Below are positions 12,697-24,901 of a stretch of 64,000 bases of DNA, piece after piece. A program made the position numbers and the translations under genes. The notes under the pieces are model-generated. The model was given only the letters and a program-made list of their open reading frames with translations. It was not told where the DNA came from and did no database searches. The first letter of the stretch is position 1, and each line of letters begins with the position of its first letter. Source of the stretch: Escherichia coli. GTDB taxonomy: Bacteria > Pseudomonadota > Gammaproteobacteria > Enterobacterales > Enterobacteriaceae. The stretch is from NCBI RefSeq assembly GCF_046105845.1, contig NZ_CP151004.1; one strand, given 5' to 3'.

Positions 12697-15519
12697 ATGG
12701 ATAAGATCGAAGTTCGGGGCGCCCGCACCCATAATCTCAAAAACATCAACCTCGTTATCCCCCGCGACAAGCTCATTGTCGTGACCGGGCTTTCGGGTTC
12801 TGGCAAATCCTCGCTCGCTTTCGACACCTTATATGCCGAAGGGCAGCGCCGTTACGTTGAATCCCTTTCCGCCTACGCGCGGCAGTTTCTGTCACTGATG
12901 GAAAAGCCGGACGTCGACCATATTGAGGGGCTTTCTCCTGCCATCTCGATTGAGCAGAAATCGACGTCTCATAACCCGCGTTCTACGGTGGGGACAATCA
13001 CCGAAATCCACGACTATTTGCGTTTGTTGTTCGCCCGCGTTGGCGAGCCGCGCTGTCCGGACCACGACGTCCCGCTGGCGGCGCAAACCGTCAGCCAGAT
13101 GGTGGATAACGTGCTGTCGCAGCCGGAAGGCAAGCGCCTGATGCTGCTCGCGCCAATCATTAAAGAGCGCAAAGGCGAACACACCAAAACGCTGGAGAAC
13201 CTGGCAAGTCAGGGTTACATCCGTGCTCGTATTGATGGCGAAGTCTGCGATCTTTCCGATCCGCCGAAACTGGAACTGCAAAAGAAACATACCATTGAAG
13301 TGGTGGTTGATCGCTTCAAGGTGCGTGATGATCTTACCCAACGTCTTGCCGAGTCGTTTGAAACCGCGCTGGAGCTTTCCGGTGGTACCGCGGTAGTTGC
13401 GGATATGGACGACCCGAAAGCGGAAGAGCTGCTGTTCTCCGCCAACTTCGCCTGCCCAATTTGCGGCTACAGTATGCGCGAGCTGGAACCGCGCCTGTTT
13501 TCGTTTAACAACCCGGCGGGGGCCTGCCCAACCTGTGACGGCCTTGGCGTGCAGCAATATTTCGATCCTGACCGCGTGATCCAGAATCCGGAACTGTCGC
13601 TGGCTGGCGGTGCGATCCGAGGCTGGGATCGCCGCAACTTCTATTACTTCCAGATGCTGAAATCGCTGGCAGATCACTATAAGTTCGACGTCGAAGCGCC
13701 ATGGGGCAGCCTGAGCGCGAACGTGCATAAAGTGGTGTTGTACGGTTCTGGCAAAGAAAACATTGAATTCAAATACATGAACGATCGTGGCGATACCTCC
13801 ATTCGTCGTCATCCGTTCGAAGGCGTGCTGCACAATATGGAGCGCCGTTATAAAGAGACGGAATCCAGTGCGGTACGTGAAGAATTAGCCAAGTTTATCA
13901 GCAATCGCCCGTGCGCCAGCTGCGAAGGAACCCGTCTGCGTCGGGAAGCGCGCCATGTGTATGTCGAGAATACGCCGCTGCCTGCTATCTCCGACATGAG
14001 CATCGGTCATGCGATGGAATTCTTCAACAATCTCAAACTCGCAGGTCAGCGAGCGAAGATTGCGGAAAAAATTCTTAAAGAGATTGGCGATCGCCTGAAA
14101 TTCCTCGTTAACGTCGGCCTGAATTACCTGACACTTTCCCGCTCGGCAGAGACACTTTCTGGCGGTGAAGCCCAGCGTATCCGTCTGGCGAGCCAGATTG
14201 GTGCGGGCCTGGTTGGCGTTATGTACGTGCTGGACGAGCCGTCTATCGGCCTGCACCAGCGCGATAACGAGCGCCTGTTGGGTACGCTTATCCATCTGCG
14301 CGATCTCGGTAATACCGTGATTGTGGTGGAGCACGACGAAGACGCGATTCGCGCCGCTGACCATGTGATCGACATTGGTCCTGGTGCGGGTGTTCACGGC
14401 GGTGAAGTGGTTGCGGAAGGTCCACTGGAAGCGATTATGGCGGTGCCGGAGTCGTTGACCGGGCAGTACATGAGCGGTAAACGCAAGATTGAAGTGCCGA
14501 AGAAACGCGTTCCGGCGAATCCGGAAAAAGTGCTGAAGCTGACAGGCGCACGCGGTAATAACCTGAAAGACGTGACGCTGACGCTGCCAGTCGGTCTGTT
14601 TACCTGCATCACAGGGGTTTCAGGTTCCGGTAAATCGACACTGATTAACGACACACTGTTCCCGATTGCCCAACGCCAGTTGAATGGGGCGACCATCGCC
14701 GAACCGGCACCGTATCGCGATATTCAGGGGCTGGAGCATTTCGATAAAGTGATCGATATCGACCAAAGCCCAATTGGTCGTACTCCGCGTTCTAACCCAG
14801 CGACCTATACCGGCGTGTTTACGCCTGTGCGCGAACTGTTTGCGGGCGTACCGGAATCCCGTGCGCGCGGCTATACGCCGGGACGTTTCAGCTTTAACGT
14901 CCGTGGCGGGCGCTGCGAAGCCTGTCAGGGCGACGGCGTGATCAAAGTGGAGATGCACTTCCTGCCGGATATCTACGTGCCGTGCGACCAGTGCAAAGGT
15001 AAACGCTATAACCGCGAAACGCTGGAAATTAAGTACAAAGGCAAAACCATCCACGAAGTGCTGGATATGACCATCGAAGAGGCGCGTGAGTTCTTTGATG
15101 CGGTGCCAGCTCTGGCGCGTAAGCTGCAAACGTTGATGGACGTTGGCCTGACGTACATTCGCCTCGGGCAGTCCGCAACCACGCTTTCTGGTGGTGAAGC
15201 CCAGCGCGTGAAGCTGGCACGTGAGCTGTCAAAACGCGGCACCGGGCAGACACTGTATATTCTCGACGAGCCGACCACCGGTCTGCACTTCGCCGATATT
15301 CAGCAACTGCTCGACGTACTGCATAAACTGCGCGATCAGGGCAACACCATTGTGGTGATTGAACACAATCTCGACGTGATCAAAACCGCTGACTGGATTG
15401 TCGACCTGGGACCGGAAGGCGGCAGTGGCGGCGGCGAGATCCTCGTCTCCGGTACGCCAGAAACTGTCGCGGAGTGCGAAGCTTCGCATACGGCACGCTT
15501 CCTCAAGCCGATGCTGTAA
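12697..15519 (+). CDS. uvrA: Excinuclease ABC subunit A, 940 aa
   Basis: [19 protein letters not shown]...; two ABC ATPase modules ([18 protein letters not shown]) and zinc-finger cysteines. Confidence 0.98.
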
Positions 15520-19708: not shown

Positions 19709-20788
19709 TTAATCCACGTATTTCATCGCGACCCTTGAAGTCAGGCGCGTAATAAGTTCGTAAGCGCTCACTTTTGTCATTTCAGCGATACGTTCTACGG
19801 GCAAACCTTCGCCCCATAAAATGACCGGGTCCCCGGCTTTGTCCTGCGCCTGTGGACCTAAATCTACGCAGATCATATCCATCGCCACGCGCCCGACAAT
19901 CGGCACTTCACGACCGTTCACCAGCACTGGCGTACCGGACGGCGCGGCGCGCGGATAACCATCGCCATAGCCCATCGCGACTACGCCAAGGCGAGTATCA
20001 CGTTCGCTTACCCAGGTTCCACCATAACCGACAGGCTCTCCGGCTTTATGCTCACGCACGGCAATCAGGCTGGAGGTTAGTGACATCACTGGCTGACAGC
20101 CAAAATCGGCACCGGTGGAGCGATCTTCCAGCGGCGAGACGCCATAAAGAATGATGCCCGGGCGCACCCAGTCAAAATGCGACTGTGGCCACAGCAGAAT
20201 GCCACCCGACGCGGCAATGGAACGTTGACCTGGTTTGCCTTCACAAAAGGTATTAAAGATAGCGAGTTGTTTCTCGGTTGCGCCACATTTTGGTTCATCC
20301 GCGCGCGCAAAATGGCTGACGATATTCACCGGCTGACGAACGTTTTTGCACTGGGTCAGGCGATGATAAAACGTCTCAGCCTGTTCCGGCCTTACGCCCA
20401 GACGGTGCATACCGGTATCGAGTTTCATCCAGACGGTAACCGGCTCGTCCAGGCTGGCCTCTTCCAGCGCAGCAAGCTGTTCTTCGTTATGCACGGCGGT
20501 ATGAAAATGTTGCGCAGAAATCGTCGGTAGATCTCTGGCATCAAAAAAGCCTTCGAGTAACAGTACAGGTTTGGTGATTCCCCCCGCACGCAGTCGCAGA
20601 GCTTCTTCGAGACGGGCTACGCCAAAGGCGTCAGCATCGGGGAGCGTTCGCGCGGTCTCAAGAAGACCGTGACCATAAGCGTTCGCTTTCACCACCGCAA
20701 CCATTTTACTGGCAGGTGCCAGTTCACGAAGACGTTGCAGGTTGTGTCGCAGAGCGCGGCGGTTAATCACAACAGTTGCCGCTTGCAT
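19709..20788 (-). CDS. alr: Alanine racemase (biosynthetic), 359 aa
   Basis: [25 protein letters not shown]...[11 protein letters not shown] (PLP-lysine motif). Confidence 0.96.
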
Positions 20789-20840
20789 TTGTGTTCCTTG
20801 ATAAGTGTTTGCTTTAATTACCTAATTCATAAAATAATTA

Positions 20841-22256
20841 TTATTCGTCGTCGTACTGCGGCCCCGCATAGTTGTCGAAGCGCGACCATTGACCGTTAAA
20901 GGTCAGGCGTACCGTCCCGATTGGGCCGTTACGTTGTTTACCGATAATAATTTCCGCGATGCCTTTTAAATCACTGTTTTCGTGATACACCTCATCACGA
21001 TAGATAAACATGATCAAGTCCGCATCCTGCTCGATAGAGCCAGATTCACGCAGGTCGGAGTTGACCGGGCGTTTGTCGGCACGTTGTTCCAGAGAACGGT
21101 TCAACTGGGACAGCGCCACCACCGGCACGTTCAGTTCTTTCGCCAGTGCTTTCAGCGAGCGGGAGATTTCTGCAATTTCCAGCGTACGGTTATCGGAAAG
21201 CGCCGGTACGCGCATCAGTTGCAGGTAGTCGATCATGATAAGCCCGATGCCGCCGTGTTCACGGGCAATACGGCGCGCGCGGGAACGCACTTCCGTTGGC
21301 GTCAGGCCGGAGGAATCATCGATATAGATATTACGTTTTTCGAGCAAAATACCCATGGTGCCGGAAATACGCGCCCAGTCTTCATCATCGAGCTGCCCGG
21401 TACGGATTTTAGTCTGGTCAACACGTGACAGCGACGCCAGAGAACGCATCATAATCTGTTCTGATGGCATCTCCAGCGAGAAGATAAGTACCGGTTTATC
21501 CTGCAACATCGCCGCGTTTTCGACGAGGTTCATCGCAAATGTTGTTTTACCCATCGACGGACGCGCGGCGACGATAATCAAATCCGACGGCTGCAAGCCA
21601 GCGGTTTTTTTGTTGAGATCGTCATAACCGGTGTTTACCCCGGTAACGCCATCGTGTGGCTGCTGAAACAACTGCTCAATACGCGCCACCGTGGCGTCGA
21701 GCACATCAGCGATGTTCTTCGGCCCTTCGTCTTTGTTTGCACGACTTTCGGCAATTTTAAAGACGCGGGATTCAGCCAGGTCCAGCAGATCTTCGCTGGT
21801 GCGCCCCTGCGGATCAAAACCGGCTTCGGCAATCTCATTCGCAACCGAAATCATCTCGCGAACAACGGCACGTTCACGCACGATGTCAGCATAGGCACTG
21901 ATGTTCGCCGCACTTGGCGTATTTTTTGACAGTTCTGCCAGATAAGCGAAACCACCGACGCTATCGAGTTGCCCCTGGCGTTCCAGCGATTCCGCAAGGG
22001 TAATCAGATCGATAGGACTACCGCTTTCCTGCAAACGCGCCATTTCAGTAAAGATATGACGGTGTGGGCGGGTGTAAAAATCGTCTGCCACCACACGCTC
22101 GGCTACATCATCCCAGCGTTCGTTATCCAGCATTAAACCGCCCAACACCGACTGCTCCGCTTCGATCGAGTGCGGAGGCACTTTCAGCCCGGCAACTTGT
22201 GGATCGCGTTCGCGGGGTTCAGCCTGCTGTTTGTTGAAGGGTTTATTTCCTGCCAT
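20841..22256 (-). CDS. dnaB: Replicative DNA helicase DnaB, 471 aa
   Basis: MAGNKPFNKQQAEPRERDPQVAGLKVPPHSIEAEQSVLGG...; Walker A ARPSMGKTTF. Confidence 0.98.
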   Translation of the reverse strand: MAGNKPFNKQQAEPRERDPQVAGLKVPPHSIEAEQSVLGGLMLDNERWDDVAERVVADDFYTRPHRHIFTEMARLQESGSPIDLITLAESLERQGQLDSVGGFAYLAELSKNTPSAANISAYADIVRERAVVREMISVANEIAEAGFDPQGRTSEDLLDLAESRVFKIAESRANKDEGPKNIADVLDATVARIEQLFQQPHDGVTGVNTGYDDLNKKTAGLQPSDLIIVAARPSMGKTTFAMNLVENAAMLQDKPVLIFSLEMPSEQIMMRSLASLSRVDQTKIRTGQLDDEDWARISGTMGILLEKRNIYIDDSSGLTPTEVRSRARRIAREHGGIGLIMIDYLQLMRVPALSDNRTLEIAEISRSLKALAKELNVPVVALSQLNRSLEQRADKRPVNSDLRESGSIEQDADLIMFIYRDEVYHENSDLKGIAEIIIGKQRNGPIGTVRLTFNGQWSRFDNYAGPQYDDE

Positions 22257-22338
22257 AGTGAATGGAGTTACCGAGATAAAGAATGGGTCGAAACTTTACC
22301 ATATGAAGCAGACCCTGACGATACGTTCTGGAGGACAC

Positions 22339-23322
22339 ATGGCAACACGAATTGAATTTCACAAGCACGGTGGCCCGGAAGTACTTCAAGCCGTAGAGTT
22401 CACTCCTGCCGATCCGGCGGAGAATGAAATCCAGGTCGAAAATAAAGCCATCGGCATCAATTTTATCGACACGTATATCCGCAGCGGCCTTTACCCACCG
22501 CCATCGCTACCCAGCGGATTAGGTACCGAAGCGGCAGGCATCGTGAGTAAAGTCGGCAGTGGTGTAAAGCATATTAAGGCAGGCGATCGCGTAGTCTATG
22601 CGCAGTCGGCGTTAGGCGCTTACAGCTCTGTGCATAACGTTAATGCGGATAAAGCGGCGATTCTGCCTGCGGCAATTTCTTTTGAGCAAGCTGCAGCATC
22701 CTTCCTGAAAGGCTTAACGGTTTATTATCTGCTGCGTAAAACCTATGAAATTAAACCTGATGAGCAGTTCCTGTTCCACGCAGCGGCTGGCGGCGTTGGC
22801 TTAATTGCCTGCCAGTGGGCAAAAGCCCTTGGGGCGAAACTTATCGGCACCGTGGGAACCGCGCAAAAAGCGCAGAGTGCGCTAAAAGCGGGCGCATGGC
22901 AGGTTATTAACTATCGCGAAGAGAATCTGGTCGAGCGGTTAAAAGAGATCACCGGTGGCAAGAAAGTGAGCGTGGTGTACGATTCCGTGGGCAGAGACAC
23001 CTGGGAGCGGTCGCTGGATTGCCTGCAACGCCGCGGCTTAATGGTCAGTTTTGGCAACTCATCAGGTGCGGTTACCGGTGTGAACTTAGGCATTCTCAAT
23101 CAGAAAGGCTCGTTGTATGTGACACGCCCTTCCCTGCAAGGCTATATCACCACGCGGGAGGAATTAACCGAGGCCAGTAATGAACTGTTCTCTTTGATTG
23201 CCAGCGGTGTGATTAAGGTCGATGTCGCCGAGCAGCAGAAATATCCGCTTAAGGATGCACAGCGTGCACATGAGATTCTGGAAAGCCGGGCGACGCAAGG
23301 TTCCAGCCTGTTGATTCCATAA
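22339..23322 (+). CDS. qorA: NADPH:quinone oxidoreductase Qor, 327 aa
   Basis: ATG at 22339 gives MATRIEFHKHGGPEVLQAVEF...; MDR/zeta-crystallin fold; divergent from dnaB. Confidence 0.93.
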   Translation: MATRIEFHKHGGPEVLQAVEFTPADPAENEIQVENKAIGINFIDTYIRSGLYPPPSLPSGLGTEAAGIVSKVGSGVKHIKAGDRVVYAQSALGAYSSVHNVNADKAAILPAAISFEQAAASFLKGLTVYYLLRKTYEIKPDEQFLFHAAAGGVGLIACQWAKALGAKLIGTVGTAQKAQSALKAGAWQVINYREENLVERLKEITGGKKVSVVYDSVGRDTWERSLDCLQRRGLMVSFGNSSGAVTGVNLGILNQKGSLYVTRPSLQGYITTREELTEASNELFSLIASGVIKVDVAEQQKYPLKDAQRAHEILESRATQGSSLLIP

Positions 23323-23329
23323 AAGAAAT

Positions 23330-23362
23330 AGGGCTTCCACCTGGGAAGCCCTTTCTTTTTAT
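23330..23362 (+). terminator. Intrinsic terminator after qor
   Basis: agggcttcc-acct-gggaagccct followed by ttctttttat. Confidence 0.85.
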
Positions 23363-23487
23363 AGTTCGGCTGTATGTAGGGTACAGCACGATGAATCTGT
23401 TAGAGGCGCAATAGTGACAGATTTGATTATCAATTCCTATTTTGTTCTAAGGATAAAACCTTAGGTTGTGATCATCCGCACAATACA

Positions 23488-23730
23488 TTAGTAACGCCAG
23501 CGGTCATAACGCTGATATTTCGGCACTTTTGGTGCTTTAATCGCCTTAATAACCCACACCACCGCAACTGCCAGTAGTAACCACGGCAGCAACTTAATCA
23601 TCAATGCCAGCATACCGCCGAGGAACATAATGGCCGTCGCCACAACCAGCGCGGCGATAATGCCCAGCAACGAAACGCCGGTGACCATCAGCATGACAAA
23701 AAAGCCAATCACAAAAAGTAGTTCCAGCAT
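23488..23730 (-). CDS. pspG: Phage-shock protein G, 80 aa
   Basis: ATG at 23730 gives MLELLFVIGFFVMLMVTGVSLLG...; GGGAGAG Shine-Dalgarno sequence upstream. Confidence 0.88.
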   Translation of the reverse strand: MLELLFVIGFFVMLMVTGVSLLGIIAALVVATAIMFLGGMLALMIKLLPWLLLAVAVVWVIKAIKAPKVPKYQRYDRWRY

Positions 23731-23764
23731 GATGCTCTCCCAAATATGAAATCTCTTGCTGGCA

Positions 23765-23782
23765 TTACAAGAATCATGCCAA
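23765..23782 (-). promoter_or_regulatory. Candidate sigma-54 (-24/-12) promoter for pspG
   Basis: Minus-strand TTGGCATGATTCTTGTAA resembles the TGGCAC-N5-TTGC consensus about 35-50 bp upstream of the pspG ATG. Confidence 0.45.
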
Positions 23783-23863
23783 AAATAATCTATTGATTTA
23801 ACAGCAAAACGCCCCGCGACGGTGCGCAGGGCGTGGTGAATTTGACTACTTTTTGGTGAAAAG

Positions 23864-24901
23864 TTAACGCTTATCTGCCACCAGTTTGAGCGCGTGTTCC
23901 AGCACGTTAATGTCAGCACCCGCTTTATGGGCATTTTCACTTAAATAACGCCGCCACTGCCGCGCGCCAGGAATACCCTGGAACAAGCCCAACATATGCC
24001 GGGTAATATGGCCGAGATACGTCCCCTGGCTGAGTTCACGCTCAATGTACGGATACATGGCGCGCACTACCGCCACCGGATCGGCATCGGTATCCGAGGA
24101 ACCAAAGATCTCTCGGTCTACCGCCGCCAGAATACCCGGATTCTGATACGCTTCGCGCCCGACCATCACGCCATCCATATGTTGCAAATGCGCTTTAGCC
24201 TCTTCCAGCGACTTGATACCACCGTTAATCGACATTGTCAGATGCGGAAAGTCACGCTTCAGTTGATACACACGCGGATAATCGAGCGGCGGGATTTCAC
24301 GGTTTTCTTTCGGGCTTAACCCCGAAAGCCAGGCTTTACGTGCGTGGATGATGAACATCTCACACTCGCCTTTGCCGGAAACGGTGTTGATGAAATCGCA
24401 GAGAAATTCATAGCTGTCCTGGTCGTCGATGCCAATACGCGTTTTCACCGTCACCGGAATCGACACCACATCGCGCATCGCTTTCACGCAGTCGGCAACC
24501 AGCTGCGCATTACCCATCAGACACGCCCCAAACATGCCGTTCTGCACCCGGTCAGACGGGCAGCCGACATTCAGGTTGATCTCATCATATCCGCGCGCTT
24601 CTGCCAGCTTCGCACACTGCGCCAGCGCCGCCGGATCGCTACCGCCGAGTTGCAACGCTACCGGATGTTCTTCTTCACTGTACGCCAGATAATCACCTTT
24701 ACCGTGAATAATCGCCCCTGTGGTCACCATTTCGGTATACAGCAACGTATTGCGGGAAAGCAGACGCAAGAAATAGCGGCAATGTCTGTCCGTCCAGTCG
24801 AGCATTGGTGCAACGCTAAACCGACCACTCCAGTGAACGTCAGTTTTTTCAGGCATTGCGCTGGTTTGGTTGATTTTTTGCATTTCAGAATTACCGTGCA
24901 T
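23864..24901 (-). CDS. dusA: tRNA-dihydrouridine synthase A, about 345 aa
   Basis: ATG at 24901 gives [44 protein letters not shown]...; TIM-barrel Dus motifs. Confidence 0.93.

Follow-up and report, generated by a model that had tools for sequence, protein, structure and literature searches.

How pspG is transcribed, and where in the short spacer separating it from its upstream neighbor the corresponding signals lie, is the question raised by this locus, which belongs to a 64,000-nucleotide stretch of Escherichia coli DNA that was analyzed as a whole (hereafter, the window). The open reading frames of the window, together with the RefSeq annotation of matching E. coli genomes and of E. coli K-12, identify dusA, the gene for tRNA dihydrouridine synthase A (23864-24901, minus strand; the start at 24901 assumes the gene length annotated in K-12), which ends with a TAA stop codon at 23866-23864, and, on the same strand, the membrane-stress gene pspG (23488-23730), which begins with an ATG at 23730 and encodes an 80 aa protein assigned to the Pfam family PF09583. 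The spacer between the two genes is 133 bp long (23863-23731). Expression of pspG reportedly depends on sigma-54, PspF and IHF, with PspA acting as the repressor. The dusA/pspG stretch is matched in 5,425 of 5,426 complete E. coli genomes, in which the genes are annotated as dusA and pspG, and the spacer is identical to that of E. coli K-12 MG1655 at 133 of 133 positions, so that experiments performed on K-12 are directly applicable.

Several features of the surroundings were recorded in the same analysis. For the 8 kb at 20000-28000, the top match among complete E. coli genomes shows only 98.7% identity, and the PspG protein shares 98-99% of its residues with the forms common in E. coli and E. 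albertii, yet the pspG spacer does not differ from K-12 at all; the window may stem from an Escherichia or Shigella lineage that has diverged to some degree. The gene for the small RNA PspH (b4758), located in the pspG 3' UTR (23321-23431, minus strand), is present and identical to the K-12 annotation; PspH is a sponge for the small RNA Spf and a promoter of its own has been suggested as possible (Melamed et al. 2016). Between the convergent pspG/PspH and qorA genes, a symmetric hairpin (AGGGCTTCC...GGAAGCCCT, 23330-23352, both strands) is flanked by T-runs on both sides and looks like a bidirectional terminator. An Rfam scan of 23200-24000 yielded only sub-threshold matches to ctRNA_p42d, an unrelated family, at 23319-23362, which we treated as chance.

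The candidate core promoter is the 18-mer TTGGCATGATTCTTGTAA (23782-23765, minus strand), located 35-52 nt ahead of the ATG of pspG. The preliminary description of this DNA had put the element about 25-50 bp upstream of the gene. The GG doublet at 23780/23779 and the GT doublet at 23768/23767 are in the canonical -24/-12 spacing, and an alignment of TGGCAT-GATTC-TTGTA with the consensus TGGCAC-N5-TTGCW shows the GG doublet and the exact 10-bp spacing expected of sigma-54 promoters, with a T replacing the consensus C in the -12 element (TTGT, not TTGC). The rule of Bonocora et al. (2015), which places the start 19 bp past the centre of the motif and gives a distance of 25 for pspG, predicts that transcription starts at a G in position 23755 (minus strand), 25 nt upstream of the ATG.

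A sequence of this kind could have arisen by chance, in which case the transcripts of pspG would originate either at a sigma-70 promoter or from polymerases reading through dusA. A plain consensus search agrees with such an explanation: allowing two or fewer mismatches, TGGCACN5TTGCW has 30 matches in the window compared to 41.5 expected, which is not above the chance frequency. Because the bare consensus could not tell the pspG site from chance, we used instead a leave-one-out weight matrix; its training set comprised the intergenic sigma-54 ChIP-seq sites listed in Table 1 of Bonocora et al. (2015) with the pspG site removed, which left 41. By this measure, the pspG site scores 17.2 bits and ranks first among the 127,968 positions of the window, well inside the range of the training sites (8.9 to 21.8 bits, median 15.9), 68% of which it outscores. 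A random sequence of 64 kb would be expected to contain ~0.22 sites as good as this one, which still leaves room for coincidence somewhere in the window, but the top-ranking site lies in the right spacer and in the right orientation, for which the calculated chance is ~2e-4. The scan for terminators and promoters yielded no sigma-70-like candidate on the minus strand, and accordingly, a sigma-70 promoter for pspG was rejected. The next-best matrix matches in the window, at 62697-62713 (plus strand, CTGGCGCTAACCTTGCT, 14.6 bits) and 15112-15128 (plus strand, CTGGCGCGTAAGCTGCA, 14.5 bits), do not reach the average top score of random sequences of 64 kb (15.9) and are therefore probably due to chance.

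The published data bear directly on this issue, given that both occupancy by sigma-54 and up-regulation of pspG upon sigma-54 overexpression have been demonstrated in other work with the same sequence, in contradiction to a chance match. Bonocora et al. (2015) report, upstream of pspG, a sigma-54 ChIP-seq peak with a fold above threshold (FAT) value of 15 at the site OS40 (TTGGCATGATTCTTGTA), which carries the flag 'C' (experimentally confirmed in EcoCyc) and has a start predicted 25 nt before the gene; this 17-mer is identical to the pspG element analyzed here. In the same work, only five genes preceded by intergenic sites, pspG among them, are expressed more strongly when sigma-54 is overexpressed, and PspF is cited as the regulator of pspG. 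The orthologous site TGGCATGATTTTTGTAAG of Salmonella Typhimurium (STM4244), which differs by one base between the -24 and -12 elements, is bound by the sigma-54 holoenzyme in ChIP-chip (Samuels et al. 2013). PspF binds the enhancers of both pspA and pspG, and IHF is described as assisting PspF at the psp enhancers; pspG, with one enhancer, is induced ~20-fold, and pspA, with two enhancers, ~100-fold (Mehta et al. 2013). The literature further indicates that expression of pspG requires PspF and is repressed by PspA, with Lloyd et al. (2004) as the primary source to which these studies all refer. Thus, the promoter in the window is the known K-12 promoter pspGp of pspG (yjbO), already published for the identical sequence: with the entire 133-bp spacer and the 17-mer being the same, it is the same element rather than a relative, without differences in the regulatory region, and only the flanking genes differ slightly. 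Our search of the literature, the reach of which did not extend to Lloyd et al. (2004), found nothing usable on the coordinates of the pspG enhancer or on a mapped start.

To place these signals in an evolutionary context, we compared 80 loci, one per species, that were picked via PspG protein alignment and represent ~25 enterobacterial genera; with the window added, the alignment of the spacer and the last 60 nt of dusA comprises 81 sequences. The dusA gene is located directly upstream of pspG in all 80 loci, with a spacer of 131-168 bp. The alignment contains five conserved blocks separated by variable sequence, namely, an enhancer-like block, a hairpin with a T-run, an IHF site, the -24/-12 element, and a Shine-Dalgarno block before the ATG (GGGAGAG in the window, 23735-23741, minus strand). 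All 80 loci have a sigma-54 motif in the corresponding position upstream of pspG, whereas the adjacent leader is not conserved, which argues against a chance match. The -12 sequence TTGTA is retained in 76 of the 80 species (the exceptions are L039, L040, L078 and L081). The claim of a minus-strand -24/-12 promoter of pspG, dependent on sigma-54 and PspF, which the preliminary description had read from the raw sequence, is therefore borne out by the first rank in the matrix search, by the conservation in all loci and by published ChIP-seq, with the PspF dependence likewise published for the identical sequence.

The comparison also brought up several local peculiarities. In Citrobacter werkmanii NBRC 105721 (L034), ~52 nt upstream of pspG, the GG of the -24 element is replaced by GT (TTGTCATG) and the matrix score drops to 9.4 bits, which reflects either a weakened promoter in that strain or an assembly error. 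In Salmonella enterica subsp. arizonae and diarizonae (L020 and L039), a GC-rich palindromic insertion of ~35 bp (CCCGGTAAGCGC...GCCGGG) is located between the promoter and the Shine-Dalgarno sequence and extends the pspG leader to ~58 nt. The sequence titled Chryseobacterium sp. 18061 (L077) has a typical enterobacterial dusA-pspG locus and probably comes from a contaminated or mislabelled assembly.

A sigma-54 promoter requires an activator site, and here the choice is between the 3' end of dusA and the spacer itself. The preliminary description had placed the promoter directly downstream of the dusA stop and, as a corollary, the activator sites within the dusA coding sequence. In the alignment, however, it is the enhancer-like block that adjoins the stop codon, beginning 0-3 nt past it in 81 of 81 sequences and extending to the hairpin, and the -24 element lies ~82 nt further downstream. 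In the window, this putative PspF enhancer (upstream activating sequence) is TTTTCACCAAAAAGTAGTCAAATTCACCACGC (23862-23831, minus strand), with the alignment consensus TTTCACYAAAAnnTRGTCAAATTCACCACGC and a mean identity of 0.84 among the 80 distinct sequences of the window and the orthologous loci from ~25 genera. It includes the imperfect palindrome TTCACCA-N5-TAGTCAA (23860-23842), followed by a second TTCACCA (23840-23834), such that the two TTCACCA elements (23860-23854 and 23840-23834) are 20 bp apart. The distance between the block and TGGCA is 79-82 bp in every sequence, compared to a predicted leader that varies from 22 to 59 nt; this constancy fits an enhancer that has to stay in phase with its promoter.

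The alternative is that the promoter is genuine but the PspF enhancer resides inside the 3' end of dusA, with the block past the stop being part of the terminator or a site for another protein. Two observations are compatible with such an arrangement: sigma-54 enhancers are usually found 80-150 bp upstream, and position -126 would correspond to 23881, within dusA; and the 226-bp 'pspG regulatory region' deleted by Mehta et al. (2013), for which the supplement gives no coordinates, is longer than the 133-bp spacer. The block past the stop, however, spans about -107 to -76 relative to the predicted start and is therefore distant enough to serve as an enhancer, with the spacing to the promoter fixed. 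A matrix built from only the 70 non-Escherichia copies of the block gives a single strong match in the 64-kb window, at 23831-23862 (47.5 bits), all other matches being at or below -2.5, and no match anywhere in dusA. Third codon positions in the last 20 codons of dusA are no more conserved than elsewhere, with identities of 0.59 and 0.63 in the two 10-codon bins as against 0.57-0.74 in the other 100 codons examined, which indicates that no signal is superimposed on the coding sequence there. On these two grounds, the lack of a matrix match and of additional third-position constraint, we rejected an enhancer inside dusA, and consider this alternative to be very unlikely; at most, a protein footprint might reach a few bp over the dusA stop codon.

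Assignment of the block to PspF comes from the comparison with the pspA promoter. When the same matrix was run over the 1.5-kb pspF-pspA locus of K-12 (L001), the top two matches, one on each strand, scored 13.7 and 8.9 bits and fell at 510-550, and the next match scored -15; only 1 in 1,000 random sequences equalled these matches. This region we take to be that of the pspA enhancers mapped at -80 to -126, presumably those described by Dworkin and colleagues in 1997 and by Jovanovic and colleagues in 1999. When compared directly, the pspG and pspA enhancers are identical in only 17 of 31 positions; both contain TTCRCYA elements, which in pspA are TTCGCCA and TTCGCTA (L001 521-527 and 541-547) and are 20 bp apart as in pspG. 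The block accordingly combines the two hallmarks of a PspF-type enhancer, a location ~80-130 bp upstream and a resemblance to the pspA enhancer, and from these comparisons, we conclude that 23862-23831 is the pspG enhancer and the likely binding site of PspF.

The similarity to the pspA promoter, which depends on PspF, IHF and sigma-54, extends beyond the enhancer. The 17-mers TTGGCACGCAAATTGTA (pspA) and TTGGCATGATTCTTGTA (pspG) share the unusual -12 TTGT, that is, the C-to-T change is also present in the confirmed pspA promoter, and in both promoters an A/T-rich, IHF-type AAATCAA element lies just upstream of -24. The non-consensus TTGT is thus common to both PspF-dependent promoters (23766-23768 for pspG and L001 624-628 for pspA) and may be a shared feature of promoters activated by PspF. 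The two regions differ in their layout: by our count from both sequences, the pspG enhancer is ~13 bp nearer to the promoter, and whereas the enhancer of pspA shares sequence with the promoter region of the divergent pspF, that of pspG directly follows a gene transcribed in the same direction and precedes the terminator of that gene.

This terminator, the second conserved block, is a predicted intrinsic terminator of dusA (23834-23799, minus strand), in which the stem ACGCCCTGCG/CGCGGGGCGT (23834-23809) is followed by a T-rich tail (23808-23799, TTTTGCTGTT). The terminator scan describes the stem as 10 bp, with 8 GC pairs, followed by the T-run, and RNA folding yields -21.5 kcal/mol (z = -3.2). 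In the covariation test, which involved 30 diverse sequences and 500 shuffles, 95.3% of the cells pair and both sides change in 8 of 10 pairs; none of the 500 shuffles equalled the observed covariation, and partners slid by 1-3 columns pair at only 32-56%. Several of the variants are G-U pairs, which are functional only in RNA of the dusA/pspG sense. The hairpin thus has the stem-loop, the U-run and the compensatory changes of a rho-independent terminator, and we assign it to the dusA transcript, as part of its 3' end, because the predicted pspG start lies downstream of it; it is most simply interpreted as the dusA intrinsic terminator. If dusA transcripts end at this hairpin, expression of pspG would rely on its own promoter. 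The covarying hairpin that separates dusA from pspG is difficult to reconcile with read-through, and when this is combined with the evidence on the promoter itself, a chance sigma-54-like sequence becomes extremely improbable. The hairpin is located between the enhancer and the promoter, that is, in the loop, where its 5' arm reaches the final TTCACCA element.

Immediately downstream of the T-rich tail, the sequence AATCAATAGATTA (23798-23786, minus strand), at about -43 to -31, is an exact match to the IHF consensus WATCAANNNNTTR, one of only 8 such matches on both strands of the 64 kb. The site is preserved with 0-1 mismatch in 65 of 81 sequences, and in 77 of 81 it precedes TGGCA by 17-18 nt, so that its position between the enhancer and the promoter, where an IHF site would be expected, is conserved. 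The order of the signals on the minus strand is accordingly the dusA stop, the putative PspF enhancer, the predicted dusA terminator hairpin, the IHF site, the -24/-12 element, the predicted start at 23755, and pspG.

Taken together, these observations leave us highly confident that the element is the known enhancer-dependent pspG promoter, with sigma-54 at -24/-12, the PspF enhancer at 23862-23831, an IHF-induced bend, and insulation by the dusA terminator; where exactly the enhancer and the IHF site lie, and that the hairpin functions as a terminator, is what we infer here from the sequence and its conservation. The sigma-54 RNA polymerase would form a closed complex at the -24/-12 element (23782-23766), and PspF would occupy the enhancer just past the dusA stop. 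Bending of the DNA by IHF at 23798-23786 would allow PspF to meet the polymerase, and ATP hydrolysis by PspF would then open the promoter, with transcription starting from near 23755. Without membrane stress, PspF would be kept inactive by PspA. Transcripts of dusA would end at the hairpin that separates the enhancer from the IHF site.

The nesting of the enhancer, the dusA terminator and the promoter might itself have a regulatory role. Polymerases finishing dusA would cross the PspF site before terminating and hence could displace PspF, such that dusA transcription would dampen or pulse the induction of pspG; conversely, PspF could act as a roadblock that alters the ends of the dusA transcript. 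We regard such a role as a speculative and unlikely possibility.

As for the promoter itself, its discovery value is small, given that pspG is a textbook gene of the PspF regulon, which has two promoters, and that its exact site is recorded both in EcoCyc and in genome-wide maps of sigma-54; the case shows that a true sigma-54 promoter could be recognized from the raw sequence. The correction concerns the corollary on the activator sites, given that the enhancer, the terminator, the IHF site and the promoter all fit into the 133-bp gap without entering dusA. The only mildly new point is that this very compact nesting of an enhancer, the terminator of the upstream gene, an IHF site and a promoter, as predicted here, appears to be conserved in ~25 genera.
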